A stretch of 64,000 nucleotides of DNA from Parcubacteria group bacterium GW2011_GWA1_56_13 (GTDB taxonomy: Bacteria; Patescibacteriota; Minisyncoccia; Phycocordibacterales; Phycocordibacteraceae). A model generated the notes under the pieces. It ran no database searches and was not told where the DNA came from. It was given only the letters and a program-made list of their open reading frames with translations. A program made the translations under genes and the position numbers. Below, in pieces: positions 25,723 to 53,110 of the stretch. The DNA lies in the NCBI GenBank assembly GCA_001004905.1, contig LCRY01000002.1:1559-65558 (forward strand), given 5' to 3'. Every line of letters begins with the position of its first letter. Positions within the stretch are counted from its first letter, which is position 1.

Positions 25723-27591
25723 ATGAGCAAAGAACAGGACGCTCTGCTCGTCTTGTATGAGCAATCTCATGCGGACCTAGCGACGTCGGGAACGCGCGTC
25801 GCGTGCCTCAACTTCTGGCTTGAACAAGAACTCAAGTCACGCGGCATCGCCTGCCTCTCGCTGGGTGACTGTCCATCAGATGGCGTACGTACGGCGGAAC
25901 TGGTGAATGCAACACGGGCCGCCGCACGAGAATGGTACCGACTGCCTGCGATGAATTTTTTTATGCACAAAGGGATACCTATTGGCGAGGCATTCGAGCC
26001 AATGGTCGATACGTATCTTGGACGTCTTGCGTACTGGCGTTACTCCTCAACGAGGATACTCGATGCTGTACCTGAGACCACAGAGCTCATCATCCCGCAT
26101 AGTACTGTGGAAATATCGGCGACGGCAGGCCCGCTCGCTCATTTTGAAGTGCGGGCCGCAGTGGATGCGGCGCGCTCGCTCGCGACGGAACGCGGTCTCG
26201 CATTCCGTACGCTCGGGGATGCATCCCGACCTCCGGCGCGGCATGTGTATCCGCGCTCGCGCCTCCAAGAGACAATCGTCGCGTTCTACAACTTTTGTAT
26301 CGGTTTCGCACCTCGTCGGCCGCTGAAAATCTTCGCGAGCGAGTATTGGCGCAACATAGCTCCGTTCATCACGCGGATGGATGACGCGGAGCTTGTGCTC
26401 ATGGAACGCGGCGAGTTCAAAAACATTCCCTGGCGGCAATTGTGGGGGCATCGGATACGCTTCATGCATCCGCGCGCCGTTGCGCGCGGCACGTGCCGCG
26501 CCGCGGCTCGTAGCGCCACAGAGGGATTTCGCGCTGCGTGGCCGGCCGCGCGGCTGGCACTTAAAGATTGGGAGGGATGGAAGCGTGCCGATATCCCATG
26601 GGCGGTCGTGGAACCGGCCCTGGAGTATCTCGTCGGGACGTACGCCGAGCGCATCGTTGCAGATATGGAAGGGCTCGAACGAATCGTGGTGCGTGAGAGG
26701 CCCGATAAGGTGCTATTGCGTGCTTCAGTTGGCGGTCGGCAGCCGCATTTCTTTCTTGCCGCGAGGGTCGCTCGGCGACTCGGTATCCCCTCGATAGAAC
26801 TCCAACACGCGGGTGCGTACGTGGACCCGCGTTCGGTGCTCTCGCGGCTTGAGACGGACTACCTCGCCGCGTACGGCTCGCATGAGCGCGAATTTTATGA
26901 GCAGAATGGCTATGCGCCGGAGCGCATCATCCTCGTCGGGTCTCCGCGCTTCGACCGTTGTATTGCCGAGCGTTTGCAGGCACAGGCGCACGGCACACGT
27001 CTGCTACAAGAAGCCGGACTTGACCCCGCGCGGCCAGTGCTCCTGGCGGCGGTGCCCGACGAGGGGGTCGGCTTCGGCATCGACTCGTTCATGCTCGCCG
27101 ACTTTTTCCGCGCCGTAGCGAGCATACCGGCCCGCACGCCGGGATTGCAGGTCGTCTTCAAGTTCCGTCCCGGCAATCGAGAGCAGGCGTCACGTGACTT
27201 TGCGCGCAGTCTTGTTCCTGATGCCGTGTGCATGGCAACCGAAGATCTCTTTTCTCTCATCTGCGCATCGGATATAGCGATATGTGGCAACTCTACCGTC
27301 ATCTATGAGGTGCTCATCGCCGGTAAACCGCTTTTGCTCCACCCTTGGCGCAAGGACGACACGTATCATGCGCGGATGTACGCCCCTGCGGCCCCGATCC
27401 TATACGCCGCCGCGGAACTCGCAGAAGCAGTCGCGCGAGCGCTCTCCGACGACGCATATCGGCGAGAACTCATTGCCCGTGGCCGGGATTTTCTACAGGG
27501 GTATTCTTTTGACGGAAAATCGGCGCAGCGTATGGCGTCGCTATTGCATAACAATTTAGCCTGCGTACCCTCTGGTATAGTCGCTCTATGA
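25723..27591 (+). CDS. Large hypothetical polysaccharide-biosynthesis protein with C-terminal GT-B-like (TagB/TagF- or KpsC/S-like) region
   Basis: Start moved to ATG 25723 (MSKEQDALL), directly after TTATAAAAAAT. C-terminus ICGNSTVIYEVLIAGKPLLLH resembles glycerophosphotransferase/capsule-synthesis GT-B enzymes. Function uncertain. Confidence 0.3.
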   Translation: MSKEQDALLVLYEQSHADLATSGTRVACLNFWLEQELKSRGIACLSLGDCPSDGVRTAELVNATRAAAREWYRLPAMNFFMHKGIPIGEAFEPMVDTYLGRLAYWRYSSTRILDAVPETTELIIPHSTVEISATAGPLAHFEVRAAVDAARSLATERGLAFRTLGDASRPPARHVYPRSRLQETIVAFYNFCIGFAPRRPLKIFASEYWRNIAPFITRMDDAELVLMERGEFKNIPWRQLWGHRIRFMHPRAVARGTCRAAARSATEGFRAAWPAARLALKDWEGWKRADIPWAVVEPALEYLVGTYAERIVADMEGLERIVVRERPDKVLLRASVGGRQPHFFLAARVARRLGIPSIELQHAGAYVDPRSVLSRLETDYLAAYGSHEREFYEQNGYAPERIILVGSPRFDRCIAERLQAQAHGTRLLQEAGLDPARPVLLAAVPDEGVGFGIDSFMLADFFRAVASIPARTPGLQVVFKFRPGNREQASRDFARSLVPDAVCMATEDLFSLICASDIAICGNSTVIYEVLIAGKPLLLHPWRKDDTYHARMYAPAAPILYAAAELAEAVARALSDDAYRRELIARGRDFLQGYSFDGKSAQRMASLLHNNLACVPSGIVAL

Positions 27592-28238
27592 GAACATTAC
27601 TAAAACGACTCGCGCACGGGACGGTCAGAATACTTGAACACATTCAAGTGTTCTATATTCCGAGCGAGCTTCCCTTGAAGACGAAGTTGTCATTTCTTTT
27701 CGGACGGTACGAAATTGAAACGTCAAAATATATCCGGAAGAATGTCCGCGGGGGTGTGGCATTTGATATCGGTGCGCATATAGGGTATTACAGTCGCCTC
27801 CTTGCTCCACTCGTTGATACGGTATATGCGTTTGAACCTGAACCGCGCAATTTCGCCCTTCTTGTTAAGAATACTAAGAAGTACCGAAACATTGTGCCAG
27901 TTAATGCGGCGGTTTCTGATATAGTTGGCCGGCAGGATTTTTTCATTGTGAAAAATTCAACGTTTAGACATTCTTTGATAAATGAAGGAGATTGCGAGAG
28001 TGTGACTGTGGACACGACAACGCTTGATGCTTTTGTGAACAAAAAAGGAATAAGAAATGTTTCGTTCGCAAAAATAGACGTCGAGGGGCATGAAAAGGAC
28101 GTACTAGTTGGAATGAAAGAGGTCATAAAGAACTGTCATCCGCTTGTCATTGCTGAAATGCCGATGAATGATACCTATACTCCTGTGTCCGCAGTAATCG
28201 GACGGCAAGGCATACTGAGGAATTATATTATTGTATGA
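27588..28238 (+). CDS. FkbM-family methyltransferase
   Basis: FDIGAHIGYYSRLLAP. FAKIDVEGHEKDVL. Confidence 0.8.
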   Translation: MRTLLKRLAHGTVRILEHIQVFYIPSELPLKTKLSFLFGRYEIETSKYIRKNVRGGVAFDIGAHIGYYSRLLAPLVDTVYAFEPEPRNFALLVKNTKKYRNIVPVNAAVSDIVGRQDFFIVKNSTFRHSLINEGDCESVTVDTTTLDAFVNKKGIRNVSFAKIDVEGHEKDVLVGMKEVIKNCHPLVIAEMPMNDTYTPVSAVIGRQGILRNYIIV

Positions 28239-28954
28239 AGGACCCTTTTGAAGCTTTCGGTGCACTCGCCCGTTCGGACGCCTCGGTTACGCTTAAGGCG
28301 GGCCGTCGCAACATGCAAGCCGAAGCCGAAAGTTTCATACCTGAAGACATTGTTCAAAAGCTCTCGCTTACATCAGGCCAGTCATTGCTTGAAATCGGCT
28401 GCGGCCCCGCTACGATACTGAAAGAGCTTGCGCCGTATGTCTTTCGGACTGTCGGTATCGACCATACAGACGTGATTGCGGTTGCGAAAGAACAATGCAA
28501 AAGCACCGGCATAGTATTTATCGCCGGCGCGTTTCCAGAAACTCGTTTGAACGAGACTTTTGACCGGATTCTTATGTACTCCGTGATTCAGTATCAAGCA
28601 AATCTAGCTGGAGCTTTTCGTTTTGTTGATGCGGCGCTCGCATTGCTAAATCCAATGGGAAAGCTCTTGATTGGGGATATTCCAAACGCTGACAGGACCC
28701 GCCGCTTTAGGGAAAGCGAGGAAGGAAAGAAATTTGAAATGGAATGGGCCGCGCGAAAAGGAATAGAGCTTGCGACCTACGAAGACCCATTCACGCTCTT
28801 TGCAGATGCCGTTACGCTCGGATTCGACGATGCGCGAATAGACGAGTTTATCTCGCATTATCGCAAACGCGGTTACCAAGTATCGACTCTCCCGCAATCA
28901 CACAAGCTTCCTTACGGATATACCCGAGAGGATATGCTCATCCAATCACTATGA
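28235..28954 (+). CDS. Class I SAM methyltransferase-like protein
   Basis: LLEIGCGPATILKELAP motif I. Acidic residue after beta-2 (VGIDHTD). Confidence 0.55.
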   Translation: MKDPFEAFGALARSDASVTLKAGRRNMQAEAESFIPEDIVQKLSLTSGQSLLEIGCGPATILKELAPYVFRTVGIDHTDVIAVAKEQCKSTGIVFIAGAFPETRLNETFDRILMYSVIQYQANLAGAFRFVDAALALLNPMGKLLIGDIPNADRTRRFRESEEGKKFEMEWAARKGIELATYEDPFTLFADAVTLGFDDARIDEFISHYRKRGYQVSTLPQSHKLPYGYTREDMLIQSL

Positions 28955-29934
28955 CGTTGCGCATTCCAAAATCTCCGCCGTCAGTCGATGTAGCATCCTC
29001 CGTATCCGTGGAGGAGATGGAAGCACTGCTTTCTGAATGGTTCGACGGGCAGGTCGTCCTCACGAGTTCCGGCAGGTCCGCGCTCCTCATAACCCTGCAG
29101 GAACTCGGGTTCGACAGATACACGCATCGCGTCGCGGTACCGCAGATGATAAGCAAATGCGTACTCGATGCCGTCACCTGTTGCGCATTCCCGGTCGACG
29201 CCGCCGGGCGGTCTGCCGCCGATGCGACGATTCAATACCCTCAGTACGGATTCATACAGCTCACACGACCATCCGGAGTCGTCGTAGAGGATATCGCACA
29301 CGCATTTTTCTCTGTTCCCCAAAAGGATGCGCCGCGCACCATCGCAACTTTCAGCCTGCCGAAGTTCTTTTCGACCACCACGATGGTTGGCGGCGTCATA
29401 GTGGCCGACCCGTCGCTCGCGCGTCGTTTGCGCGAACGGCGCAAGAGCGCTCCCGTTAAAAGCGCGGAAACGCTTGCAAAGGAGGCCTCAATATTCCGCA
29501 CCTTTTCCGGAGGCGGAAGCGGGGAATTGAGCCTGCTGTATACCGCCAGATTGCTCAACCCGCGTATCGAGAGCGTCGAGCTCGGCGGTCTGCCGACGAA
29601 GCGCTCCGAGATTGAGGAGATTCGGCGTAAGCGTCGGGACATCATGGAGACATTGCTTGTGGCGGCTAGACACCTCGTACCCCGTGGTTGGGGAGATATG
29701 CTTCGCGACCATCTTCCCTATGCTTTCCCGGTATTCGCTTCGGGAGATGTTCTCGAGCGGCTGAATCGCGAACTGCGTGAAGCGGGTATCGAATCCGACC
29801 TCTATCGGATAGATGCCGACCGGGACATGATGCATCCTCGCTATGAACCTATGCTTCTTATCCCGTACTCCCATCTCGTCTCCGAGGAGGTACTGAAGGA
29901 TACGGGGTCCATACTGCGCTCACGGTCTGTATGA
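28951..29934 (+). CDS. Divergent DegT/DnrJ/EryC1-like PLP-fold protein
   Basis: Start moved to ATG 28951 (MTLRIPK). LTSSGRSALLITLQELG. VVVEDIAHAF. Candidate PLP lysine in FSLPKFF. Shorter (327 aa) than canonical DegT. Confidence 0.4.
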   Translation: MTLRIPKSPPSVDVASSVSVEEMEALLSEWFDGQVVLTSSGRSALLITLQELGFDRYTHRVAVPQMISKCVLDAVTCCAFPVDAAGRSAADATIQYPQYGFIQLTRPSGVVVEDIAHAFFSVPQKDAPRTIATFSLPKFFSTTTMVGGVIVADPSLARRLRERRKSAPVKSAETLAKEASIFRTFSGGGSGELSLLYTARLLNPRIESVELGGLPTKRSEIEEIRRKRRDIMETLLVAARHLVPRGWGDMLRDHLPYAFPVFASGDVLERLNRELREAGIESDLYRIDADRDMMHPRYEPMLLIPYSHLVSEEVLKDTGSILRSRSV

Positions 29935-30947
29935 AGATACTATCCTGGCAACAGATAAGCGATGAACAGTGGGATGCTTTTTGTGATGCGTCCCCAGAAA
30001 CATGGGGGCGACACCGTAGCATGAGTCGTCACGGCATGCTTGCAGACCCAAATAATTCAGATCACTCATTTGGTATTATGCAAAACGGCGTACTTATGGC
30101 CATTGCGCCACTTATATTGCGGGCTATACCTGACACGCATGAACGGGAATTCGCGTATAGTCGTAACATGGCGACGCCTGCGCCGGCATTAGCACAAGGA
30201 TTGTTTCTCGAAAAGCACGAAGAACTTCTCCAAGAATGTATGAGAGAAACAGACCAACGAGCAATACGTCTTGATGCTGTTCGTGCAAGAATATTCATCG
30301 ATCCACTCACTCGTCCTATGCAAGTGGAAATATCTACACAGAACCCGCTTGCTCAATTCGGCTATACTGACGCGAGCACTATCGCGTATGTAATTGATTT
30401 ATCTAAAAATGAGCAGGAACTACTTGTGCGAATGTCAAAGGGGCATCGTTCTGATATTACATTTGCACAAAAGAAGGACTACACTGTAGAGTTTTTTGAC
30501 TGTACCAATATCACAGAAGACGTGTGGCGCGTATTTATTGATTTGTACCATGCGGCCGCGGGGCGCATTGTTAACTCACCTGAACAGTGGGCAGAGACAT
30601 TTAATCGCCTGTGCGGAGGATTCGCGTCACTTGCTCTTGCGCGAGGGGAAGATGGTGGTCCGTATCTCTCTGGTGTGCTTATAAGTACGTATAAGCGCCG
30701 AGCCTATTACAGTATGGCGGCGACCAATCCACAGTACCGTAGTCTGCGTGGAGTAGGAGCATTTTTACAATGGCATATCATCGGAGAACTCAAGCGTCGA
30801 GGATTCGAATACTATGACATGGGTTGGTATGATGGTACGCAGCGAATAGAAATGAGTAAAAAGGAAATAGACATCATGAACTTTAAGCGTCACTTCGGTG
30901 GCGACCCTGTACCACTTTGGGCGGGGATAAAAGAGTATAAAAGTTGA
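29931..30947 (+). CDS. FemXAB-family aminoacyl-tRNA-dependent aminoacyltransferase
   Basis: 338 aa. EREFAYSRN, AYYSMAATNPQY...LQWHIIGELKRRGFEYYDMGW and NFKRHFGG align with FemX landmarks (KKFAYASKG; YMYAGS...IQWAL...YDLGG; VFKHVF). Confidence 0.65.
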   Translation: MKILSWQQISDEQWDAFCDASPETWGRHRSMSRHGMLADPNNSDHSFGIMQNGVLMAIAPLILRAIPDTHEREFAYSRNMATPAPALAQGLFLEKHEELLQECMRETDQRAIRLDAVRARIFIDPLTRPMQVEISTQNPLAQFGYTDASTIAYVIDLSKNEQELLVRMSKGHRSDITFAQKKDYTVEFFDCTNITEDVWRVFIDLYHAAAGRIVNSPEQWAETFNRLCGGFASLALARGEDGGPYLSGVLISTYKRRAYYSMAATNPQYRSLRGVGAFLQWHIIGELKRRGFEYYDMGWYDGTQRIEMSKKEIDIMNFKRHFGGDPVPLWAGIKEYKS

Positions 30948-30979
30948 ATATTACAGTGGAAGCATTTACTATGGTATCC

Positions 30980-31330
30980 ATGAATGTGTTAGGCATAGGG
31001 GTAGACGTAACCGATATTAAGAGATTTAGAGACCAAAAGATGCGACGTAACGCGCGATTCATCGTTAATACATTTACCGAAATCGAGAGAGAATACTGTT
31101 ATGCGTATAAGGATTATGCGCCTCATCTCGCGGGTGCCTATGCAGCAAAAGAAGCCGTACGAAAAGTGTACGGTGATACACCGATTCTGTTCTTAGAGAT
31201 TGAAGTTCGCCATCATGCATCGGGCAAACCAGAAATATGGATTAAAGGTAAGCGCTCGAGAACGTTTCTTATTTCAATCTCACATAGTGCAACGGTGGCG
31301 ATTGCTGTAGCATTCAACCAACTATCATGA
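30980..31330 (+). CDS. acpS: Holo-[acyl-carrier-protein] synthase (AcpS-type 4'-phosphopantetheinyl transferase)
   Basis: MNVLGIGVDVTDIKRF. EREYC. AAKEAVRK. In-frame alternative start ATG 30971; the track start 30944 is a TTG. Confidence 0.75.
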   Translation: MNVLGIGVDVTDIKRFRDQKMRRNARFIVNTFTEIEREYCYAYKDYAPHLAGAYAAKEAVRKVYGDTPILFLEIEVRHHASGKPEIWIKGKRSRTFLISISHSATVAIAVAFNQLS

Positions 31331-32364
31331 AAAAATGTATTGTACTCGATTTAGATAATACGCTCTGGGGGGGAGTCATTGGCGAGGAAGGTTTTGACAA
31401 TATAGAATTATCTCTAAAACCTCCAGGAGCAGGTTTTATGGCGTTCCAGCAGGCATTACTGGATTTATATGACCGTGGCGTCATTCTTGCAATTAACAGC
31501 AGCAACAATCTCGAGGACGCTTTACAGGTCATACGAACACACCCCAATATGATCTTAAAAGAAAGGCATTTTGCGGCACATCGCATCAATTGGCAGGATA
31601 AGGTTGAGAATATGCGAGCGTTAGCCAAGGAGCTCAATATATGTCTTGATTCGATGGTGTTTCTTGACGACAGTCCTCTTAATCGTGAGTCGATGCGAAC
31701 ATTCCTTCCTGAAGTCGAGACGCCAGACTTACCTACGGATACGTCTCAGTATTCGAAGTTTCTCCATGCCCTGCCACATTTTGAGCATAAAACAATCACC
31801 GACGAAGACAAGATGAGAGGGAATTTGTACGTAACCGAGCGATTGCGCAAGGAGACAGAAAAGAAATTTGAAAATCGCGAAGAATTTTTGAAAAGTCTTG
31901 GTATTGAACTTGCGGTTCGCGAGAATGATCAATCAGCGATTTCTCGCGTTACTCAACTTACTGAGAAAACGAACCAGTTCAACATCAAAAAAAGACCATA
32001 TACCGAGGATGAAATAAAAATGTTTATGCAAGATGATACATATGCAATATTTCACGGGCGCGCCATAGACCAATTTGGTGATCAGGGTGTCATCGCATTT
32101 GCTCTCGTACGTAAAGCTCAAGAAATATGGCATATTGAGTCGCTCCTGATGAGTTGTAGAGTAGTCGGTCGTGGCATTGAAGACGCTTTTCTCGCCGCAA
32201 TTGCGAAGCGCGCGAAGGACGAGGGCGCACAGACTCTCGGTATAACGTTCGAGGCGTCAGAAAAGAATGAGCTTGCCCGTGCATTTGTAGAACGTTTGTT
32301 TAAAAACGCGCAGAATGTTCCTGTGATACAATTCCAAACACCGAGCTGGATAACTCTTGCATGA
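31327..32364 (+). CDS. FkbH-like HAD-IIIC domain protein
   Basis: KCIVLDLDNTLWGGVIGEEG is the FkbH/HAD-IIIC signature. 345 aa. Confidence 0.8.
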   Translation: MKKCIVLDLDNTLWGGVIGEEGFDNIELSLKPPGAGFMAFQQALLDLYDRGVILAINSSNNLEDALQVIRTHPNMILKERHFAAHRINWQDKVENMRALAKELNICLDSMVFLDDSPLNRESMRTFLPEVETPDLPTDTSQYSKFLHALPHFEHKTITDEDKMRGNLYVTERLRKETEKKFENREEFLKSLGIELAVRENDQSAISRVTQLTEKTNQFNIKKRPYTEDEIKMFMQDDTYAIFHGRAIDQFGDQGVIAFALVRKAQEIWHIESLLMSCRVVGRGIEDAFLAAIAKRAKDEGAQTLGITFEASEKNELARAFVERLFKNAQNVPVIQFQTPSWITLA

Positions 32365-32591
32365 AAGATTTTAACACACTCGTGACAGAGCATTTTAAAA
32401 TTAATTCCGCGAATATTACGGATATGCTTACCGCGCAGGACGTCCCAGAATGGGATTCGATGAATTATCTTCTCTTTATCGCGGACGTTGAAAAGGAGTA
32501 TGATGTCTCGTTCACTATGGATGAAGTACTCGGAGTACAGACTCTGGGAGATATTAAAAAGATACTGCGAGACAAATCGGTCAACGTATGA
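32361..32591 (+). CDS. Acyl carrier protein
   Basis: 76 aa. Phosphopantetheine-attachment context WDSMNYLLFIADVEKEY (DSM in place of DSL). Confidence 0.7.
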   Translation: MKDFNTLVTEHFKINSANITDMLTAQDVPEWDSMNYLLFIADVEKEYDVSFTMDEVLGVQTLGDIKKILRDKSVNV

Positions 32592-33013
32592 TCCAAGCAG
32601 AAGATAGGAAATTTGTCTCTCTTCGGATCGGCGAAATAGCGTCTTTTGAGCGTACGATTCGTGCTGACGATGTGCGCGCTTTTGCCGATCTGAGCGGCGA
32701 TTACAGCCCGCTTCATATGGACGACGACTATGCTCGTTCTACGCAATTCGGCGACAGACTGGTGCACGGCATGTTCCTCGGCAGCTTAGTCTCACGCCTT
32801 GTCGGGATGCATATGCCGGGCAAGCACGCTCTTTTGATGAAAGAATCACTTGAATTCAAGAAGCCGGTTCGTATCGGAGACACCGTAAGGATCGAAGGAG
32901 AGATCATGATCGCGAGTCCGTCCACACATATTATTGAACTCGACATTCGTCTCTATGCGGAGAACATGCTGGTTGCTACCGGAAGGGTACACGTGCAGGT
33001 ACGTGATGAATGA
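32588..33013 (+). CDS. MaoC-like (hotdog) dehydratase
   Basis: FADLSGDYSPLHMDDDYARSTQFGDRLVHGM. Confidence 0.8.
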   Translation: MIQAEDRKFVSLRIGEIASFERTIRADDVRAFADLSGDYSPLHMDDDYARSTQFGDRLVHGMFLGSLVSRLVGMHMPGKHALLMKESLEFKKPVRIGDTVRIEGEIMIASPSTHIIELDIRLYAENMLVATGRVHVQVRDE

Positions 33014-33719
33014 TATGAACGCCGATCCCCTTGCGATCATTTCAGGCGGTACAGGCTATCTCGGTACGACCATCGTTGCGGAGCTTAAAGAGGCTGGCTG
33101 GAGCGTCGTATCACTTTCAAAAAATACGTCCGAATCAAGCGCCGAAGTGTACACCTGTGATGTCACTGATGAAAAGGACGTACAGGCCGTGATCGCAAAA
33201 ATTGTTGCGGCTCACGGTCCGATATCCGCCTGCATCCATGCGGCCTCGCCGTCTTTAGAACGTTTGCCGGTGCTCTCAATTTCTGCAGAATCTTTTGATG
33301 TCACGATGCATACGAATGTGAGGGCGGCGTTTCTCCTGGCGAAAGAGACCGTAAAGCACATGCCGGAAGGTTCCGCATATATTGGTGTAACCACACAAGC
33401 CATAGAGCCAGGCATGCTGCAGCCATCGGGAGCTTATATACCTGCGAAGTATGCACTCAGGGGTTTCTTGCGCGTATTATCGGCGGAGACGAAACAGCTA
33501 GGGATCCGCGTTTTCGCCGTTTCCCCCAGCTTTCTTCCGGGCGGTCTGAACGATGATTTGCCGCAAAATGTTCAGGATTTTCTCGCGAACAAAAGCGGGA
33601 CCGATAAACAATCAACAAGAGAAATCGCGACATTGATAAAGAAACTTTGCCTCCATGAGGGCGGGTTTCTCTCAGGCTCATCGATAGCTTTCCCATCTCT
33701 TGCGAGCAGTCCTCTCTAG
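33006..33719 (+). CDS. SDR-family oxidoreductase (3-oxoacyl-ACP reductase-like)
   Basis: Start moved to ATG 33006 (MNDMNADPLAIISGGTGYLGTTIVAEL). YIPAKYALRGF (YxxxK). Confidence 0.8.
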   Translation: MNDMNADPLAIISGGTGYLGTTIVAELKEAGWSVVSLSKNTSESSAEVYTCDVTDEKDVQAVIAKIVAAHGPISACIHAASPSLERLPVLSISAESFDVTMHTNVRAAFLLAKETVKHMPEGSAYIGVTTQAIEPGMLQPSGAYIPAKYALRGFLRVLSAETKQLGIRVFAVSPSFLPGGLNDDLPQNVQDFLANKSGTDKQSTREIATLIKKLCLHEGGFLSGSSIAFPSLASSPL

Positions 33720-33720
33720 T

Positions 33721-34506
33721 ATGGAGCTCTTCAGAACCGACAACGGCGCTTCGGTAAAGGATACAGATGTTCTCGCGGCTTTTAGACAAGTTGGTATAAA
33801 ACAAGGAGACCTTCTGTTTGTGCACTCATCACTCAAGGCGTTCGGCATGCTTGCGCAACCGGATACTCAGGCACTGATGGCGGCACTCGTTACGGCGTTT
33901 ACTGAGATTATTGGAGAGAAAGGGACCCTAATTATGCCGACTTTCACAGACAATTTTCTCAAGGGGAAACCGTACCACACAGACGATCGTTCAACGGTCG
34001 GTGCGCTGACTGAGTTCTATCGAGGGCAACCAGGCGTTTCGCGTACACTCCACCCATTCTTTTCTGTTGCAACACGAGGCCCACGGTCTGCCGAGCTTGC
34101 AGACATAAGTCACGACTCGTTCGACGCGCATTCAATATTTGGCAATGTGCATCGACTGGATGGCCTACTGGTTTTTTTTGGTGCGCGTTTTCAGTCATGT
34201 ACCTTTGTTCATTACGTCGAACAGATCCACGGTGTGCCGTACCGCTTTATGAAGACGTTCGAAGGCGTTATAGTGGACGGTGAGCGCTCGTATCGCGATT
34301 CCTATACGTATTTCGTGCGACCGCTCGACGGCAATGTTGATCCTGAATTTTCAAGGTTAGGCAAACGCCTTTTAGATTCCGGTATGATGCGCGAAGCGCC
34401 GCTCGGGCATGGCAGGGTGTTCGCCGTGCGGGCGCGAGACCTGTTTGACGAAGGCAGTAAGCTGCTCGATGCGGATATATATTCTCTTCTCAAGCAAAAA
34501 CCATGA
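33721..34506 (+). CDS. AAC(3)-family (aminoglycoside 3-N-acetyltransferase-like) N-acyltransferase
   Basis: GDLLFVHSSLKAFGML...GTLIMPTFT matches the Antibiotic_NAT/AAC(3) N-terminal signature. Confidence 0.7.
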   Translation: MELFRTDNGASVKDTDVLAAFRQVGIKQGDLLFVHSSLKAFGMLAQPDTQALMAALVTAFTEIIGEKGTLIMPTFTDNFLKGKPYHTDDRSTVGALTEFYRGQPGVSRTLHPFFSVATRGPRSAELADISHDSFDAHSIFGNVHRLDGLLVFFGARFQSCTFVHYVEQIHGVPYRFMKTFEGVIVDGERSYRDSYTYFVRPLDGNVDPEFSRLGKRLLDSGMMREAPLGHGRVFAVRARDLFDEGSKLLDADIYSLLKQKP

Positions 34507-35804
34507 CCCATTCTTCTCAGGAACACTTCACCGATGCCGGAGCGGGTGAGGCAATGCATGCACTCGCGACTGAGCTTTTTCCAATTTGCCGTAGCCTTAC
34601 GGGAGCTGGCGTTCGCGAGACACTACGCATTCTGCAGAAAATTATCCCACTCACGATACATGAAGTACCGAGTGGCACAAAAGTCTTCGATTGGACGATA
34701 CCGAAAGAATGGGTGATTCGCGATGCATACATACTTGACCCAACAGGAAACAAAATAATAGATTTTAAGAAGAGCAATCTACATGTAGTGCACTACTCGG
34801 TGCCGGTCGACACTGACATAACGCTCTCGGAGTTACAAGAACATCTCTACTCACGACCCAATCAACCGGATGCTATTCCATACATCACTTCATTTTACGA
34901 AGAACGCTGGGGCTTTTGTTTGGCACATCGAGAGCGAGAGAAGCTTGCTGAGGGTACTTACCATGTGCATATAGATAGCGACCTCAAGAATGGCTCGCTC
35001 ACGTATGGTGAACTTGTTGTGCCAGGCGAACACAAGGAGGAGATATTTATCTCGACTTATGTTTGTCATCCGTCGCTTGCCAACAATGAACTCTCCGGTC
35101 CTGTCGTCACAACATTTCTCGCGCGATGGATTATGAGTCAGCCGCGACGTTACACCTACCGTATCATTTTTATCCCCGAAACTATCGGTTCTATTATGTA
35201 TTTGTGCCACAATGTTGAAGCAATGAAAAAGCATGTTATTGCTGGATTCAATATGACCTGCGTTGGAGATGAGCGGGCCTATTCGTACCTTCCTTCACGC
35301 CTCGGTGGCACGTTACCAGATCGTGTAGTACATCTTGTGCTCTCGCACAGACATCCTGAATTTATAACGTATTCATTTTTAGATCGTGGTAGTGACGAAC
35401 GCCAATATTGCGCGCCTGGTATTGATTTGCCTGTGGTTTCTGTTATGCGAACCAAATATGGCAGATATCCAGAGTATCACTCTTCTCTCGACAATCTTTC
35501 CCTTATTACTCCAAACGGTCTTGAAGGTACCTATGGTGTGATGAAGGATTGTTTGGAATTGATCGAACGCAATCACCGATACAGTACCACAGTACTTGGT
35601 GAACCACAGATGGGTCGTCGGGGTCTTTATCCGACGCTTGGCAACCAGTATGACTTACACACTCATCGAATGATGGATGTACTTGCATATGCTGACGGGA
35701 AGCACGATCTTGTTGATCTATGCACAGTTCTTGGGATTACACCTTGGGATCTTTATCCAATTATCGAGACGTTACGAGATGCCGGTCTTATAGAGTTGTG
35801 TTAG
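34503..35804 (+). CDS. Hypothetical protein, possibly aminopeptidase-like-domain polysaccharide-biosynthesis protein (COG4310/DUF4910-like)
   Basis: 433 aa, no signature motif identified. Assignment rests only on the recalled co-occurrence of such proteins next to AAC(3)-like genes in glycan loci. Confidence 0.25.
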   Translation: MTHSSQEHFTDAGAGEAMHALATELFPICRSLTGAGVRETLRILQKIIPLTIHEVPSGTKVFDWTIPKEWVIRDAYILDPTGNKIIDFKKSNLHVVHYSVPVDTDITLSELQEHLYSRPNQPDAIPYITSFYEERWGFCLAHREREKLAEGTYHVHIDSDLKNGSLTYGELVVPGEHKEEIFISTYVCHPSLANNELSGPVVTTFLARWIMSQPRRYTYRIIFIPETIGSIMYLCHNVEAMKKHVIAGFNMTCVGDERAYSYLPSRLGGTLPDRVVHLVLSHRHPEFITYSFLDRGSDERQYCAPGIDLPVVSVMRTKYGRYPEYHSSLDNLSLITPNGLEGTYGVMKDCLELIERNHRYSTTVLGEPQMGRRGLYPTLGNQYDLHTHRMMDVLAYADGKHDLVDLCTVLGITPWDLYPIIETLRDAGLIELC

Positions 35805-35825: not shown

Positions 35826-35854
35826 TTGAAATTTGTAGATATATGTATTAGAAT
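35826..35854 (+). promoter_or_regulatory. Sigma70-like promoter, near-leaderless transcript for the pseB-like gene
   Basis: -35 TTGAAA (35826-35831), 17-nt spacer, -10 TAGAAT (35849-35854). ATG 35864 is ~9 nt downstream. Lies in the only ~60-nt gap of this part of the locus. Confidence 0.45.
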
Positions 35855-35863: not shown

Positions 35864-36880
35864 ATGGCAAGTAAAAAGCCGGCTAAGAAACAGGCGTGGA
35901 GCGCTCCAACGAGTTTTCTTAAAAGCAAGACAGTCCTCATAACCGGTGGCACGGGCACCTTCGGCCGCGCGTTTATTCAGCGCCTGTTCAAGGTTCCGGG
36001 GCTGGCAAAACTCATCGTTTTTAGCCGCGACGAACTCAAACAGAGCGAGCTCGCGGCCGACTATCGCGACGAACCGCGATTACGCTTTTTCATCGGCGAT
36101 ATCCGCGACCCGGAGCGACTCAAGCGCGCGTTGGAAGGCGTGGATATCGTAGTGCATGCGGCGGCGCTCAAGCGCGTCGAAGCGATAGAGTACAACCCGT
36201 TCGAGGCGATACAGACCAACGTCGTAGGCAGCAAGAACGTTATCGACGCAGCCATCGACCGGAAGGTCGGCAAAGTACTCCTCGTCTCCTCGGACAAGGC
36301 GGTCGAGCCCATCAATCTCTATGGCGCGACGAAGATGTCTGCGGAAAAACTCTTCGTTGCGGCAAACGTGTATGCCGGAATGGGCACCACGGCACTCAGC
36401 GTTGTGCGGTACGGCAACGTTATCGGCAGTCGAGGTTCGTTCGTAGAGCTCGTCGAGCGGCAGCGCGAAAACGGCAGTATCACGGTCACCGATCGTCACA
36501 TGACGCGGTTTTGGATACGCATCGAGCAGGTTATCGACATCGTCCTTGAGACGCTCGCTCTCATGCAGGGCGGTGAGATTTTCATCCCGAAGATGAAGAA
36601 CATGCCCATTACCGATGTCGTGAAGCTCCTCGCGCCCTCGTGCAAGGTAGAGGTTATCGGCGCGCGTCCCGGCGAGAAGCTGCATGAGACGCTGATGACC
36701 AAGTACGAGGTCAAATACGCGCGCGAATTGCCCCGCTTGTTCGTCATTACACCGCGTGCGGGCGGCGGCCCCGTGTGGCTCAAGCGCTCCCGCATGGTCC
36801 CTGACAACTTCCTCTACACGAGCGACAATAAGAAGTTTCTCCTCTCGCGGAAGGAAGCGGCGGAACTGTTCGCGAAATAG
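35864..36880 (+). CDS. pseB: UDP-N-acetylglucosamine 4,6-dehydratase (PseB/FlaA1/CapD short form)
   Basis: VLITGGTGTFGRAFIQRL. IVFSRDELKQSEL. YGATKMSAEKLFVAAN. 338 aa, characteristic of PseB-type enzymes. Confidence 0.8.
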   Translation: MASKKPAKKQAWSAPTSFLKSKTVLITGGTGTFGRAFIQRLFKVPGLAKLIVFSRDELKQSELAADYRDEPRLRFFIGDIRDPERLKRALEGVDIVVHAAALKRVEAIEYNPFEAIQTNVVGSKNVIDAAIDRKVGKVLLVSSDKAVEPINLYGATKMSAEKLFVAANVYAGMGTTALSVVRYGNVIGSRGSFVELVERQRENGSITVTDRHMTRFWIRIEQVIDIVLETLALMQGGEIFIPKMKNMPITDVVKLLAPSCKVEVIGARPGEKLHETLMTKYEVKYARELPRLFVITPRAGGGPVWLKRSRMVPDNFLYTSDNKKFLLSRKEAAELFAK

Positions 36881-36882
36881 CC

Positions 36883-37851
36883 ATGACGCGCTATCGCGTC
36901 GCGGTGATCGGCTGTGGCAAGGTGGGTGCCCTTTACGAGCGCGAGGCGGGTCGCCCGAAACCCGCGAGCCACGCCGGCGCCGCAGTACGTGATCCGCGCA
37001 CGGAGCTCGTCGCGCTCGCCGATACGTCGCCCACGGCGCTCGCGAGAGCGAAGAAGCTGTTCCCACGTGCACGCGCTTATTCTTCGGCATCGGAATGCCT
37101 GCAGACGGAGCGTCCCGACATCGCCGTCATCGCCACACCCGTTTCGGCCCGCCTCTCTCTCGTGCGGCTCTGCCTGCGCTACGGTGTCCGAGCCATCATC
37201 TGCGAGAAGCCGCTCGCATCCTCGGCGGTTGAGGCGGCGAAGATCACCCGCGCGGTCGAACGTTCCGACGCCGCGTTCGTCCTGAACTATCCGCGACGGT
37301 TCGCGCCGCTCTTCTCGCGCGTTCGCCGCGCTATAACTTCGGGTGCGCTCGGCGCGGTACAGCAGGTGACCTGTTACTACAGCAACGGGTTATACAATAA
37401 TGGCGGTCACGCCATCGATTCGCTACTTTACCTGCTCGGAGAGGACATGAAAGTGCGCTGGGCCGCCGTCAATAAAAGAGCGGCGCACCCCCCTGGGGAT
37501 CCGTGCATGGATGCGACACTCGAGACGAAAAAGGGGGCGCGGGTGATGTTGCAGAGTGTGGATCAAAAAGCGTACGGGATATTCGACATCCGCCTATTCG
37601 GCACGAAGGGCGAGCGCTCGTTCATTGACTACGGCACCACTCTCATCGAAGCGGCGCCGCGAAGATCCTTCTTTAAAGAGGTGCGCCAGCTCGACCGGGC
37701 GCGCGCGCGCGTGCACACAAGTCCGGAGGGAAACGTACTCGCGGAAACACTCAAGGCGCTCGCGAAGAAAGAGCGTCCGAACGGTGCGAAGCAGGGATTC
37801 ACGGTCCTGCGGACGCTCGATGCAATACGCCATGCGGCAAAAAAGAAATAA
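36883..37851 (+). CDS. Gfo/Idh/MocA-family NAD(P)-dependent sugar oxidoreductase
   Basis: YRVAVIGCGKVGALYE N-terminal Rossmann fold. May act like WbpB-type sugar-nucleotide 3-dehydrogenases. Confidence 0.8.
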   Translation: MTRYRVAVIGCGKVGALYEREAGRPKPASHAGAAVRDPRTELVALADTSPTALARAKKLFPRARAYSSASECLQTERPDIAVIATPVSARLSLVRLCLRYGVRAIICEKPLASSAVEAAKITRAVERSDAAFVLNYPRRFAPLFSRVRRAITSGALGAVQQVTCYYSNGLYNNGGHAIDSLLYLLGEDMKVRWAAVNKRAAHPPGDPCMDATLETKKGARVMLQSVDQKAYGIFDIRLFGTKGERSFIDYGTTLIEAAPRRSFFKEVRQLDRARARVHTSPEGNVLAETLKALAKKERPNGAKQGFTVLRTLDAIRHAAKKK

Positions 37852-37870
37852 CAACATAACCTTTCCACCC

Positions 37871-39076
37871 GTGTACCACATAGACCGTCGCGAGATAGCG
37901 GCGGTGACCGCCGTCATGAAAAAAGGCCCGTTGTCGGGGTTCGTTGGGGAGCCCGGTCCGGAATTTTTCGGTGGCTGTGCCGTGCGGCGGTTCGAGCGGG
38001 CATTCGCGCGGAAATTCGGAGTGAAGCACGCGACCTCCTTCAATTCAGCGACGACGGCGCTTCATGGCGCGATAGTGGCGCTCGGTATCGGTCCGGGAGA
38101 CGAGGTCATCGTCCCGCCGTACACGATGTCGGCGAGCGCGACTTGCGTGCTGATGAACGGCGCGGTGCCGATCTTCGCCGATATCGAGCCGGACACCTTC
38201 TGTATCGACCCGAGAGACGTCGCACGCAAGATAACCAGGCGGACCAAGGCGGTCATGATGGTGAATCTGTTCGGGCGGACGGGCGACATGAAGGCGCTCC
38301 TCTCGCTTGCGCGCAGACACCGGCTCGCGATTATCGAGGATAACGCGCAGTCAGCGGGTGCCCGCTTCCATGGCCGCTATACGGGAACGATCGGCGATAT
38401 TGGCGTTTTCAGCTTCAATGTTCATAAGCAGATACAATCCGGCGAGGGTGGGGTACTCGTTACTAACAACCGGAAGTTCGCGGACCGCGCACTGCTTGCA
38501 CGCAACCATGGCGAGAACCTCTCCGGCGAGTACTCCGGCGCCGGTCCCATCTTCGGCACGAACTACCGCATGACGGAGGTGACAGCCGCCATCGCCGAAG
38601 TGCAGCTCGAAAAGCTCGACTTTCTGAACCGGAAGCGCGTCGCACTCGCGCGTCGCCTCTCGAAGCGGCTCGCCGGCACCCCGGGGCTTACTCTGCCGCG
38701 CCCGCCCGAGGGCGGAAGCCACGTGTATTACGCTTATCCGCTGCGTTTCGATGAGAAGGCGGCCGGCCTCTCGCGGGCGGAATTCGTCAGGAAACTGCAA
38801 AAGCGCGGCTTCCCGATCGGCGCGGGATATGTAGAGCCGCTGTATCTCCTTCCTCTTTTCCAGAAGAAGCAGGCATTCAATGGGACGCACTTTCCCTTTG
38901 ACTACAACGGCAGGGCGGAGCCCGATTACCGCAAAGGCCTGTGCCCAGTGACCGAGCGCATGCATTACCGGGAATTCGTGGGGACCGACGTCTGCCAGCA
39001 TCCCTACACCGCGGCGCACATCGACGCCTTCGCCGTCGCGGTGAAGGAAGTTCTCGCGCAAGCGAAGAAGCGATGA
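37871..39076 (+). CDS. DegT/DnrJ/EryC1/StrS-family sugar aminotransferase
   Basis: Start moved to GTG 37871 (..YHIDRREIAAVTAVMKKGPLSGFVGEP). PLP lysine in FSFNVHKQIQSGEGGVLVTNN. Confidence 0.8.
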   Translation: MYHIDRREIAAVTAVMKKGPLSGFVGEPGPEFFGGCAVRRFERAFARKFGVKHATSFNSATTALHGAIVALGIGPGDEVIVPPYTMSASATCVLMNGAVPIFADIEPDTFCIDPRDVARKITRRTKAVMMVNLFGRTGDMKALLSLARRHRLAIIEDNAQSAGARFHGRYTGTIGDIGVFSFNVHKQIQSGEGGVLVTNNRKFADRALLARNHGENLSGEYSGAGPIFGTNYRMTEVTAAIAEVQLEKLDFLNRKRVALARRLSKRLAGTPGLTLPRPPEGGSHVYYAYPLRFDEKAAGLSRAEFVRKLQKRGFPIGAGYVEPLYLLPLFQKKQAFNGTHFPFDYNGRAEPDYRKGLCPVTERMHYREFVGTDVCQHPYTAAHIDAFAVAVKEVLAQAKKR

Positions 39077-40050
39077 AAGCGCTTTTCGCCGCACAGGACC
39101 CGGGCGGAGCGAACGCGATTCTGCCGGTAGCTGCCGCGCTCATGGCGCACGGCGATACGGTCGTAGCGCGGGTCGAGGGCGCCGCCCAACACATGTTTGC
39201 GGCGCGCGGCTTTCCGCTCGGCGCGATCAAGCCCGACGTGGTCGTCCTCGGCACGAGCGGAGGGGAGAGCGTCGAGAAGCGGGTTACCGATGAGTTTCGC
39301 CATGCGGTGCCGATTGTTGCGGTCTTGGATTTCTGGTCCAATTATTGGCAGCGCTTTTCCACGCTCGGTGCCAAGGATTTCGCGTACCTGCCGGACCGTA
39401 TCTGCGTGATGGACGAAGTCGCGCGGGACGAAATGCTCGCGGAGGGCTTCCCGCCGGAGCGCATCGCGGTGACCGGCAATCCGCATTTCGACCATTTTGC
39501 GGATGGCATCACGCGCGACCGCGAAGACCCAAAGCGCGTCCTGTTCGTATCGCAGCCAATCCGAGCCGATGCTCGCCTTCCGGGTTTCGCGCCGGCGGCG
39601 GCCGACGAATTCAGTTTGCTTGCGGACGTAACGGCGGCCCTGCCTCCCGGCCATACGCTCTCCGTCCGGCTCCATCCGCGCGACGAGCGGAGCAAATACG
39701 ACGCATATCTTGATGGGCGGGTAACGCTCGCGCCAGAAAAAACGCTCGAAGAAGCTCTTTCGGCAAGCGGCCTCATCATCGGTCCCGCGACGCCCGTCCT
39801 CATGCAGGCCGCCGCGGCGGGGAAAAAGGCGCTCTGCTATGAACCCGGGCTCTCGGCCCCGGACACGCTCGTCAGCAACCGCGTCGGCGTGACGACACGC
39901 GTTTCCTTGCCGGAGGAACTCAGGAGCGCGCTCGCGGCGTATGTGCGGCGAGACTGGCCATACGCTACGCGACCGTTGCGGGACGTATGGCCGCTCGGCG
40001 CGACCGAACGCGTTGTCGCCGTTGTCCGTTCGCTTGCGGAAAGAAAATGA
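39073..40050 (+). CDS. GT-B-fold protein, possible PseG-like UDP-sugar hydrolase or NeuC-like enzyme
   Basis: Start ATG 39073, ATGA overlap. MKALFAAQDPGGANAILPVAAAL N-terminus typical of MurG/PseG-like GT-B proteins. Function uncertain. Confidence 0.35.
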   Translation: MKALFAAQDPGGANAILPVAAALMAHGDTVVARVEGAAQHMFAARGFPLGAIKPDVVVLGTSGGESVEKRVTDEFRHAVPIVAVLDFWSNYWQRFSTLGAKDFAYLPDRICVMDEVARDEMLAEGFPPERIAVTGNPHFDHFADGITRDREDPKRVLFVSQPIRADARLPGFAPAAADEFSLLADVTAALPPGHTLSVRLHPRDERSKYDAYLDGRVTLAPEKTLEEALSASGLIIGPATPVLMQAAAAGKKALCYEPGLSAPDTLVSNRVGVTTRVSLPEELRSALAAYVRRDWPYATRPLRDVWPLGATERVVAVVRSLAERK

Positions 40051-40063
40051 TGCAAAATAGGCC

Positions 40064-42540: not shown

Positions 42541-42542
42541 CT

Positions 42543-44847: not shown

Positions 44848-44858
44848 CATCTTTGCAT

Positions 44859-49390: not shown

Positions 49391-49400
49391 ACATAAATCC

Positions 49401-52357: not shown

Positions 52358-52361
52358 ATAT

Positions 52362-53105: not shown

Positions 53106-53110
53106 CATAT

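Follow-up and report, generated by a model that had tools for sequence, protein, structure and literature searches.

An acyl-carrier cassette predicted to place a C3 acid on a pseudaminic-type sugar in the surface-glycan locus of a Parcubacteria bacterium

Why should a bacterium of the candidate phyla radiation (CPR) keep, in the midst of sugar genes, a private acyl carrier protein (ACP) together with an enzyme to prime it? The question is raised by a 64-kb stretch of contig LCRY01000002.1 from Parcubacteria group bacterium GW2011_GWA1_56_13 (Candidatus Kaiserbacteria under the naming of other records). This whole stretch, hereafter the window, holds some 53 kb of glycan genes (about 6.7–59.4 kb, positions 6756–59469), flanked by Mur ligases (568–3215) and by MurB and SecA (59466–63462), and the same protein sequences are also found in assembly GCA_003531405.1. 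Within the glycan genes, a cassette of seven genes encodes an AcpS-type phosphopantetheinyl transferase, an FkbH-type glyceryl loader, a stand-alone ACP, a MaoC-type dehydratase, a short-chain dehydrogenase/reductase (SDR), an AAC(3)-fold N-acyltransferase and a DUF4910 protein (table 1). We propose, with a probability of roughly 55%, that this cassette assembles a C3 acid (lactoyl or, failing that, glyceroyl) on a dedicated ACP and then links it to an amine of a pseudaminic-type sugar.

The limits of the cassette emerge from a comparison with three related Parcubacteria loci (L166–L168; tblastn E < 1e-5, ±10 kb), whose flanking genes are 41–81% identical, at the protein level, to the backbone of the window. 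These loci run in the order Epimerase_2-like, methyltransferases, PLP_IMCC1989-like, FemAB-like, PseB, GFO, DegT, polysialyltransferase-like, PseC, class-III aminotransferase, CMP-transferase/AKR and NeuB. At that threshold and distance, no AcpS, FkbH, ACP, MaoC, SDR, AAC(3) or DUF4910 homologue was detectable in any of them, and only about 65 nt separate the stop of the FemAB-like gene from the start of PseB. As the seven genes from AcpS to DUF4910 (30971–35804) are present here and missing in relatives with the same backbone, we take them to be the cassette. Positions 29931–35804, in which an initial annotation of this DNA had described seven contiguous genes, hold eight, all on the forward strand, with neighbours overlapping by 4–8 bp or separated by at most 23 nt. 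The seven genes named there are real, and profile searches confirmed the family of each, but the DUF4910 gene had been missed and the FemX-like (FemAB-like) gene does not belong with the others. Indeed, the latter stays directly upstream of PseB in the relatives without the cassette (L166, L167, L168), as it does in L171, a synteny that rules it out as a member of the carrier cassette and marks it as a backbone gene; in L125, its place is between PseB and PseC.

The lower GC of the block, pointed out in the same annotation, was borne out both by window GC (0.43–0.51 at 30–36 kb versus 0.55–0.65 on both flanks) and by GC at third codon positions (GC3: 0.39–0.55 in the block versus 0.62–0.77 in the conserved genes from PseB on). 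The comparison with the relatives, taken alone, fits either direction of change; the lower GC3 favours a gain of the cassette here rather than its loss elsewhere. No transposase or integrase genes and no boundary repeats were found around the block, and the search for insertion scars at the cassette junctions returned only short repeats at chance level.

The carrier system itself is centred on FkbH. The encoded protein matches TIGR01686 at 302.9 bits (cut-off 146.65; residues 2–327 on profile positions 3–320 of 323) as well as the HAD-IIIC model. The initial annotation had made its reading depend on the catalytic cysteine and phosphatase residues of this protein, and all are present, with Cys277 as the presumed catalytic cysteine: the HAD motifs D8-L-D10-N-T12, S58, K92 and D114-D115 are conserved in 78 of 79 bacterial and archaeal homologues, and Cys277-Arg278 (motif S-C-R) is invariant in all 79. 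In the structural model (pLDDT 87.8), the N-terminal half superposes on PDB entry 3SLR with a root-mean-square deviation of 1.5 Å, and the C-terminal half has a GNAT fold, in which Cys277 is predicted to stand at the end of the strand preceding an R-x-x-G-x-G loop. Family membership and the conserved residues make this cysteine the presumed carrier of a glyceryl thioester. Entry 3SLR is BF1531 of Bacteroides fragilis, itself an FkbH-family protein. Most FkbH homologues in glycan loci reach approximately 550–670 aa and, like BF1531, carry an extra N-terminal domain of approximately 220 aa. In several CPR homologues, just as in OzmB, only the core (345–355 aa) is present. These lengths come from longest-ORF (longest open reading frame) gene calls and may be overestimates. 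The FkbH of the window has the same two-domain size as OzmB (345 versus 366 aa).

The ACP gene and the stop codon of FkbH overlap by 4 nt. Upstream, the AcpS protein passes PF01648 (43.2 bits versus a cut-off of 25) and TIGR00556 (55.7 versus 45.35) and misses the housekeeping equivalog model TIGR00516 (47.2 versus 59.8); since the housekeeping models are not reached, it is best described as a divergent AcpS-type enzyme. Profile searches detected no ketosynthase and no acyl-CoA ligase in the cassette, and no ketosynthase, acyltransferase or polyketide synthase (PKS) domain in the ORFs scanned across the window. FkbH would thus be the only enzyme able to load the ACP, which also rules out a 3-hydroxybutyryl-type fatty-acyl route through MaoC and SDR; variants containing FabH do exist, in other phyla. 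Altogether, these genes support the dedicated AcpS/ACP/FkbH system making a C3 acyl-ACP that was initially suggested, and the MaoC–SDR pair would fit the lactoyl option.

This system is not a peculiarity of the window. An FkbH alignment was searched against one genome per species, and the best 80 loci, drawn from many bacterial and archaeal phyla (38–63% identity), were examined for neighbours within approximately 6–10 kb of FkbH. An ACP homologue (a small ORF) was found in 55–57 of them, usually adjoining FkbH directly where gene order was mapped, followed in frequency by MaoC (22–26), PseB-like proteins (18), AcpS (14–18), SDR (at least 13), NeuB (8), AAC(3) (6–7) and DUF4910 (3–4). Other recurrent partners were glyoxalases (21), hexapeptide acyltransferases (19), Acetyltransf_6 proteins (9), MBOAT proteins (7) and FabH (6). 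From these counts, FkbH–ACP appears as a common, variably wired acyl-donor module of glycan loci. One of its recurrent forms is [AcpS]-FkbH-ACP-MaoC-SDR or MaoC-SDR-FkbH-ACP, then AAC(3) or MBOAT. All seven cassette genes occur together in the CPR loci L088, L126, L170 and L171, and six of them, DUF4910 being the one missing, in L169; among CPR loci, the donor half and the transfer half are found in either order.

The distribution of AcpS bears directly on the question of the private carrier. An AcpS homologue stands in the FkbH locus of all eight CPR genomes versus four of 61 other bacteria, and in all six archaeal genomes outside Nitrososphaeria/Thermoproteota (these loci belonging to Promethearchaeota, Thorarchaeota, Nanoarchaeota, Woesearchaeota and Micrarchaeota) versus none of five Nitrososphaeria/Thermoproteota loci. 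CPR bacteria and these archaeal lineages are generally described as being without type II fatty-acid synthesis, so that a private priming enzyme makes sense in them.

Two further forms of the module were observed. In L007, L009, L029, L054 and L072, FkbH-ACP-MaoC-SDR is present in whole or in part, with an MBOAT gene adjoining or nearby in place of the AAC(3)-like gene, an arrangement suggesting that the same C3 acid is used to O-acylate a surface polymer in a Dlt-like manner. In L056, L058, L080 and L084, mostly from Bacteroidales, a hexapeptide acyltransferase, ACP, SDR, FabH, glyoxalase and FkbH are grouped in somewhat varying order, usually with a second ACP after them.

Which C3 acid would be made depends on MaoC and SDR, whose genes are translationally coupled between those of the ACP and the transferase. 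The MaoC protein keeps the Asp and the His of a hydratase-2-like motif (F-A-D-L-S-G-D-Y-S-P-L-H). The order MaoC-SDR-FkbH-ACP recurs in L030, L065 and L069, and MaoC-SDR-FkbH in L054. Lactate-loading modules of polyketide synthases are built as dehydratase (DH)–ketoreductase (KR)–FkbH–ACP. In the reaction of OzmB, 1,3-bisphosphoglycerate is converted to (phospho)glyceryl-S-enzyme and then to glyceryl-ACP (PMC9057759), and the DH–KR proteins of FR901464 and lankacidin turn glyceryl-S-ACP into lactyl-S-ACP (PMC4765723). The same four activities, FkbH, ACP, dehydratase and ketoreductase, are thus found in these systems and in the cassette (PMC9057759, PMC4765723). The cassette differs from them in having neither ketosynthase nor PKS, in its MaoC hot-dog protein in place of a DH domain, and in an acyl group that would go to a sugar amine instead of starting a polyketide; the likeness is therefore one of working in the same way, by analogy, and not one of membership.

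The acyl group would be transferred by the AAC(3)-like protein. It keeps the T-x-x-H-x-x-E motif of its family, and its best PDB matches are named aminoglycoside N3-acetyltransferases, but its scores against resistance models are far under their cut-offs (AAC_3_IV, 81.5 versus 420; AAC_3, 72.7 versus 270; AAC_3_II, 53.1 versus 480; AAC_3_VIII, 48.6 versus 560). The gene starts 1 nt past the SDR stop and overlaps the DUF4910 gene by 4 nt. A scan of metagenomes with an alignment of the family (A2) returned 80 loci, many on short contigs, with DUF4910 in 44, ACP in 41, FkbH in 33, AcpS in 28, and MaoC and PseB in 24 each. For the 21 loci that extend 2.5 kb or more to each side, the counts are ACP 18, FkbH 17, AcpS 17, DUF4910 15, PseB 13, PseC-like 11, MaoC 9, NeuB 9 and polysialyltransferase-like 6. 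Six metagenomic loci carry MaoC–AAC(3) fusions and three AAC(3)–DUF4910 fusions. Neighbourhoods and fusions support the view, already put forward in the initial annotation, of an amino-sugar N-acyltransferase tied to nonulosonic-acid genes, not a resistance gene, and suggest that one branch of the AAC(3) fold uses acyl-ACP. The protein shares the Antibiotic_NAT fold and the T-x-x-H-x-x-E motif with AAC(3) enzymes and with FrbF. The latter acetylates a CMP-linked amine (CMP, cytidine monophosphate) and would offer an earlier example of nucleotide-activated substrates being used by this fold. From AAC(3) enzymes the protein of the window differs by lying under every resistance cut-off, by a context that points to an acyl-ACP donor instead of acetyl-CoA, and by the fusions seen elsewhere.

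Its neighbour, the DUF4910 protein, matches PDB entry 3K9T with E = 1.9e-114 over residues 14–411. The family has one zinc site (His189, Asp195, His324) and lacks the M28 catalytic residues, which are replaced by Ser191 and Pro225 (PMC4000134). His189, Ser191 and His324 are kept here, as is the position of Pro225 (FIPETIGS, alignment read by eye). The Campylobacter jejuni member, Cj1295, is required for the di-O-methylglyceroyl pseudaminic acid (DMGA-Pse) of that organism, and Hitchen et al. proposed that it removes the 5-N-acetyl group of pseudaminic acid (Pse), thereby enabling its replacement (PMC3068675). Among the families of the cassette, DUF4910 is the only one for which we found published genetic evidence (Cj1295). 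Fusions of AAC(3) with DUF4910 fit two consecutive steps, and we propose that the latter acts as a de-N-acetylase or acyl-exchange partner of the former.

Cultured bacteria carry other versions of the set. On plasmid pHL2708Y3 of Maritalea myrionectae (L172, 4952–10272), pseB is followed by an AAC(3)–FkbH fusion of 819 aa, a MaoC–SDR–ACP fusion of 489 aa that ends in a related GWDSL domain, DUF4910 and NeuB; the record labels the fusions only ‘HAD-IIIC family phosphatase’ and ‘SDR family oxidoreductase’. After pseB-C-F-G-H-I, Sporomusa aerivorans DSM 13326 carries ACP, FkbH, glyoxalase, AAC(3), DUF4910 and a methyltransferase. Neither version includes AcpS, and that of Sporomusa, also without MaoC and SDR, would be of glyceroyl type. 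Finally, the conjugative plasmid pDG3-1a of Agrobacterium salinitolerans (L173) carries a canonical cluster of pseB-C-F-G-I and pseH beside an AAC(3)-family gene, followed by an IS3 transposase and DUF4910; the record of its AAC(3)-family gene bears the gene ontology term ‘response to antibiotic’.

From these elements, the following pathway can be proposed. AcpS would prime the small ACP. FkbH would take 1,3-bisphosphoglycerate and form a glyceryl thioester on Cys277, its HAD domain would remove the phosphate, and the glyceryl group would pass to the ACP. By analogy with the DH–KR proteins of FR901464 and lankacidin, MaoC may then eliminate the 3-hydroxyl of glyceryl-ACP, giving pyruvoyl-ACP, and the SDR may reduce this to lactoyl-ACP. 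From the ACP, the acyl group would be passed by the AAC(3)-fold enzyme to an amine of a pseudaminic-acid precursor or of its CMP derivative. In the weakest step of the scheme, DUF4910 would take off the N-acetyl group whose place the acyl group fills, most probably at N5; both published N5 examples, those of C. jejuni and Psychrobacter marincola, are the products expected of an acetyl swap. The FemX-like backbone enzyme would probably handle the other amine (the PseH-type step), and relatives without the cassette would make the same sugar minus the C3 acyl group. For loci in which no DUF4910 was seen (L097, L117, L121, L123, L127, L169), we can only speculate that the transferase acylates the free 4-amino group, which becomes N7; in Tannerella forsythia and Vibrio vulnificus the glyceroyl group is at N7.

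Table 1. Coordinates of the cassette and of neighbouring features in the window (position 1 is the first nucleotide of the 64-kb stretch; scores in bits).
Feature	Position	Strand	Remarks
PLP_IMCC1989-type protein	28951–29934		upstream of the FemAB-like gene; conserved pair with it (also L166, L168)
FemAB-like protein (FemX-fold tandem GNAT)	29931–30947	+	backbone, outside the cassette; Acetyltransf_6 37, above its cut-off; FemAB 26.7 versus cut-off 24
AcpS-type 4'-phosphopantetheinyl transferase	30971–31330	+	first cassette gene; alternative TTG start 30944
FkbH-type glyceryl loader	31327–32364	+	HAD-IIIC phosphatase plus GNAT-fold transferase domain; 345 aa
Stand-alone ACP	32361–32591	+	76 aa; PP-binding 20.9 versus cut-off 20.8; presumed phosphopantetheine serine in WDSM
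MaoC-type (R-specific) hot-dog dehydratase	32588–33013	+	PF01575 74.6 versus cut-off 27
SDR/ketoreductase	33006–33719	+	adh_short_C2 99.7; KR 35.6; motifs G-x-x-G-x-x-G and Y-x-x-x-K
AAC(3)-fold (Antibiotic_NAT) N-acyltransferase	33721–34506	+	PF02522 130.3, profile 1–231 of 232; alternative TTG start 33700
DUF4910/DUF2172/HTH_47 M28-like one-zinc protein	34503–35804	+	last cassette gene; 359, 129 and 79
Promoter-like element TTGAAA-17-TAGAAT	35826–35854	+	upstream of PseB, right-hand insert junction; 10/12 consensus matches
PseB	35864–36880	+	397 versus cut-off 407.75, just below
GFO/IDH/MocA oxidoreductase	36883–37851	+	weakly like UDP-GlcNAc 3-dehydrogenase, 36.8
DegT aminotransferase (divergent, second)	37871–39076	+	
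Polysialyltransferase-like protein	39073–40050	+	some homologues carry PF07388
PseC	40064–41212	+	479 versus cut-off 423.5
Class-III aminotransferase	41209–42540	+	
CMP-transferase (generic cytidylyltransferase)	42543–43319	+	
Aldo-keto reductase (AKR)	43316–44236	+	
NeuB	44664–46079	+	248–249 versus 340; under both the PseI and the NeuB cut-off

Several observations weigh against this pathway. Its donor, acceptor and position are all deduced from sequence. The MaoC motif has Ser where the hydratase-2 consensus has Asn, and the protein is of the single hot-dog kind rather than a PKS-type DH; furthermore, MaoC stands without an adjacent SDR in many related loci (L097, L117, L121, L123, L125, L127), so that the dehydrated product is not always reduced within the cassette and the role of MaoC becomes less certain. 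In the DUF4910 protein, the zinc ligand Asp195 is replaced by Asn followed by Glu, a variant (HPSxANNE) also present in Sporomusa (L085). On the Agrobacterium plasmid, no FkbH or ACP was found within 9 kb of AAC(3) and DUF4910, and the pair can thus work with other donors. No recognizable PseG was found in the nonulosonic-acid module. In L087, L088, L126 and L170, the AAC(3)–DUF4910 pair adjoins the GFO–DegT unit, which makes a different acceptor sugar possible. Lastly, both of the flagellin mobility variants of C. jejuni strain 11168 that were sequenced have Cj1296/7 out of frame (PMC3068675, Table 1), and cj1296 is among the consistently OFF genes (PMC13130089). Since DMGA-Pse is made there with Cj1295 on and Cj1296/7 out of frame, the AAC(3)-like enzyme may be dispensable in that organism.

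The first alternative concerns the acceptor. The C3 acyl-ACP could be made as proposed and transferred to another amino sugar, for instance a 3-amino sugar produced by the GFO and DegT enzymes encoded downstream of PseB. The GFO protein does weakly resemble the 3-dehydrogenase of uridine diphosphate N-acetylglucosamine (UDP-GlcNAc), the AAC(3)–DUF4910 pair stands directly past the GFO-DegT-(GNAT)-polysialyltransferase-like unit in the four loci just mentioned, and N-(R)-2-hydroxypropionyl-perosamine is known from Vibrio cholerae O144 (cited in PMC7281560). However, across loci the pair goes along with PseB, PseC and NeuB more than with GFO and DegT (DegT1), as PseB is found in 13 of the 21 long loci versus six for the polysialyltransferase-like gene, and the gene adjoining AAC(3) in CPR loci of the L087/L088/L126/L170 type resembles a nonulosonic-acid transferase. 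The pair is also found beside pse or neuB genes in C. jejuni and Clostridium acetobutylicum (PMC3068675, PMC4000134) as well as in Sporomusa, Agrobacterium and Maritalea, and the published product of C. jejuni is a pseudaminic acid derivative. We consider such an acceptor unlikely, if still worth keeping in mind.

A rather improbable alternative keeps both the cassette and the transfer but has glyceroyl as the acyl group, MaoC and SDR having some other task, such as proofreading or work on a different ACP adduct. Two methyltransferase genes (FkbM-type and class-I; 27588–28954) lie 2–3 kb upstream of the cassette, and their products could possibly O-methylate the glyceroyl group. The product of the related C. 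jejuni locus is a 2,3-di-O-methylglyceroyl-Pse (PMC3068675), Pse bearing an N-glyceroyl group is found in T. forsythia and V. vulnificus (PMC5378307), and cassettes lacking MaoC and SDR include a methyltransferase in L016, L085 and probably L139, L140 and L148. The upstream methyltransferases are, however, also present in the cassette-less L166 and L168, whereas MaoC and SDR, coupled as they are between ACP and transferase, accompany FkbH–ACP in many phyla, arranged as MaoC-SDR-FkbH, and are fused to ACP in Maritalea.

The division of labour between the last two enzymes could also be reversed, DUF4910 being an acyl-exchange enzyme (taking its acyl group from ACP or by amide swap) and the AAC(3)-fold protein an ordinary acetyl-CoA N-acetyltransferase that replaces PseH. 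DMGA-Pse goes with Cj1295 alone, Cj1296/7 being out of frame (PMC3068675), and Das et al. suggested a role in transacylation for the family (PMC4000134); the window has no PseH in the ORFs scanned, and the Agrobacterium pair lacks FkbH and ACP. This reading has little to recommend it in view of two sets of data. First, AAC(3) is fused to MaoC in six loci and to FkbH in Maritalea, and it accompanies FkbH-ACP-MaoC, with no DUF4910 in the DNA examined, in the six loci listed above; it is thus AAC(3), not DUF4910, that is tied to acyl-ACP. Second, Agrobacterium and Sporomusa carry both pseH and AAC(3), which speaks against a replacement of PseH. As for a true aminoglycoside-resistance determinant carried here by accident on a mobile element, which the lower GC of the block, the Antibiotic_NAT score (130 bits) and the named PDB matches might evoke, it is scarcely credible given the failure of every curated resistance model, the tight coupling to SDR and DUF4910, flanks free of transposase, integrase and boundary repeats, and a synteny with ACP, FkbH, DUF4910 and pse genes conserved across phyla.

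The C3 transfer to a pseudaminic-type sugar thus remaining the preferred reading, the acceptor would probably be supplied by the module that follows the cassette (35864–46079). The steps of the canonical pathway (PseB-C-H-G-I-F) are not all recognizable in it, PseC alone scoring above its cut-off. The absence of a canonical PseH or LegH, noted at the outset, was verified: the long ORFs scanned over the 64 kb contain no homologue of GNAT or hexapeptide acetyltransferases, PseH or PseG. As no PseG is recognizable and NeuB falls under both cut-offs, the sugar may not be pseudaminic acid proper. The polysialyltransferase-like ORF was considered as a hidden PseG or PseH, and no Pfam, NCBIfam or PDB sequence match was found for it; since some of its homologues belong to the polysialyltransferase family, it more likely transfers the finished sugar. 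A hidden GNAT between DegT1 and this ORF, as in L087 and L088, was sought and not found. The GFO-DegT-(GNAT)-polysialyltransferase-like unit (36883–40050) recurs, in whole or in part, in L087, L088, L126, L142, L145 and L170, where it often adjoins AAC(3)–DUF4910.

A reasonable candidate for the missing PseH-type N-acylation is the FemAB-like backbone protein, whose FemX-like fold, unlike its cassette membership, stood up to closer study. Its model (pLDDT 86.6) has FemX structures as top PDB matches (6SNR, 1NE9, 7Z5Y; E = 1e-15, TM 0.68–0.70) and also resembles Sba18/Sbb17, aminoacyl-tRNA-dependent enzymes that aminoacylate the aminosugar-containing streptothrisamine; the next-best fold matches are tandem GNATs using acetyl-CoA. 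Its donor is possibly aminoacyl-tRNA. The protein scores 38 bits against TIGR04421 (FemAB_IMCC1989; cut-off 250), and both it and its PLP_IMCC1989-like neighbour are far under the cut-offs of TIGR04421 and TIGR04422, respectively. A search of 5.8 billion proteins gave no more than 12 homologues of the FemAB-like protein; those few that carry a source name come from Parcubacteria.

Between cassette and module, the promoter-like element before PseB has a counterpart in the FemAB–PseB spacer of L166–L168, where TTGAGT and TACAAT, some 17–18 nt apart, were read by eye at the matching place. A scan for promoters and terminators gave sites no commoner than in shuffled sequence, the pseB-proximal site apart, and the element is only a hint of a promoter.

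Elsewhere in the window, a second low-GC block (46974–50567; GC3 of 0.34–0.38 versus 0.62–0.77 in the conserved nonulosonic-acid genes upstream) lies just past NeuB and a methyltransferase. It encodes two ATP-grasp ligases and a methyltransferase of 388 aa and has the look of a further tailoring module gained from outside, through which an amino acid would perhaps be attached to the sugar. Positions 50580–54319, still inside the glycan locus, encode a split transketolase (N- and C-terminal halves), an SDR and an ATP-grasp enzyme of the L-amino-acid-ligase type. The locus ends with an ABC transporter (55456–57258) and a Wzy_C and TPR protein resembling O-antigen ligases and PglL (57310–59469), and just upstream of it lies a TrwB/TraG-like coupling-protein ATPase (4345–5910; weak Pfam matches).

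How much of this was already described? The initial annotation held that the combination was not a described pathway, and this was too strong. A neighbourhood with DUF4910, an aminosugar N-acetyltransferase, ACP, a ‘NAT + HAD phosphatase’ and NeuB was published in 2014 for Clostridium acetobutylicum (CA_C2186–CA_C2199, the source of PDB entry 3K9T), where it also includes a PseB-like epimerase, a CMP-type nucleotidyltransferase and an ATP-grasp ligase (PMC4000134). Das and colleagues proposed for the CA_C2195 neighbourhood no more than a general part in the synthesis of a modified surface carbohydrate; their gene table is without MaoC, SDR and AcpS, and no glycerate or lactate chemistry was suggested (PMC4000134). 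In C. jejuni NCTC 11168, published annotations allow Cj1295 (DUF2172/M28-like), Cj1296/7 (N-acetyltransferase) and cj1302 (FkbH-domain) to be likened to cassette genes; they stand just past pseB and pseC, and the C3 acid is amide-linked to pseudaminic acid, as Pse5(2,3-di-O-methylglyceroyl)7Ac (PMC3068675, PMC6321876, PMC7099621). The C. jejuni system differs in that its product keeps both hydroxyls, in O-methylated form, that MaoC and SDR genes are not mentioned in the published locus descriptions, and that the genes are phase-variable, with Cj1296/7 usually off. Additional ACP and FabH genes are presumably also part of that locus. C. jejuni was not among the best 80 FkbH loci of the genome scan. 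The cj1302 gene is described as the FkbH-domain gene of the flagellin glycosylation locus (PMC7099621), and a footnote in a 2026 paper states that Cj1296–Cj1310 take no part in the glycosylation of flagella (PMC13317340). As for the products, pseudaminic acids with an N-glyceroyl or an N-(R)-lactoyl group have been described (PMC5378307, PMC7281560), the latter including the Pse5(R-lactoyl)7Ac of P. marincola (PMC7281560).

Thereby, the core neighbourhood, the Cj1295 phenotype, cj1302, the chemistry of FkbH and DH–KR proteins, and the N-glyceroyl and N-lactoyl sugars must all be counted as known. In the literature searched, we found no enzymology for the gene set of the cassette, no gene assignment for the lactoyl group, no paper on the gene cluster behind the Pse5(R-Lac)7Ac of P. 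marincola, and none joining the parts into a pathway, assigning the MaoC–SDR extension or noting the acyl-ACP-linked branch of AAC(3). The earlier publication of the core gene association and of the Cj1295 genetics lessens the weight of our finding accordingly.

Beyond this locus, we tentatively suggest, at somewhat less than even odds, that FkbH-ACP-MaoC-SDR is a free-standing glycerate-to-lactate carrier pathway of primary glycan metabolism, spread over Bacteria and Archaea and served by interchangeable transferases: AAC(3) with a DUF4910 de-N-acetylase to exchange the N-acetyl of pseudaminic-type sugars for lactoyl or glyceroyl, and MBOAT to O-acylate surface polymers. If this holds true, CPR bacteria and DPANN/Asgard archaea would keep an ACP and an AcpS solely for decorating surface sugars, and a genetic basis for N-lactoyl and N-glyceroyl nonulosonic acids would be supplied. 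With the cassette and its fused relatives, a defined group of enzymes becomes open to assay for C3 N-acyl modifications, cultured carriers being available, and the way in which nonulosonic acids acquire C3 acyl groups could be settled. Automated annotation, for its part, labels the acyl-ACP-linked branch of AAC(3) as antibiotic resistance. The N-acyl variety of nonulosonic acids shapes recognition by phages, antibodies and hosts. CPR genomes are roughly 1 Mb or less, and the genes described here are carried on contigs of up to 456 kb, so a 53-kb glycan locus would be several percent of the genome of the organism. That so small a genome devotes some 53 kb to one surface glycan, with a private carrier system to decorate it, is a clue to how an epibiont presents itself to its hosts and phages.

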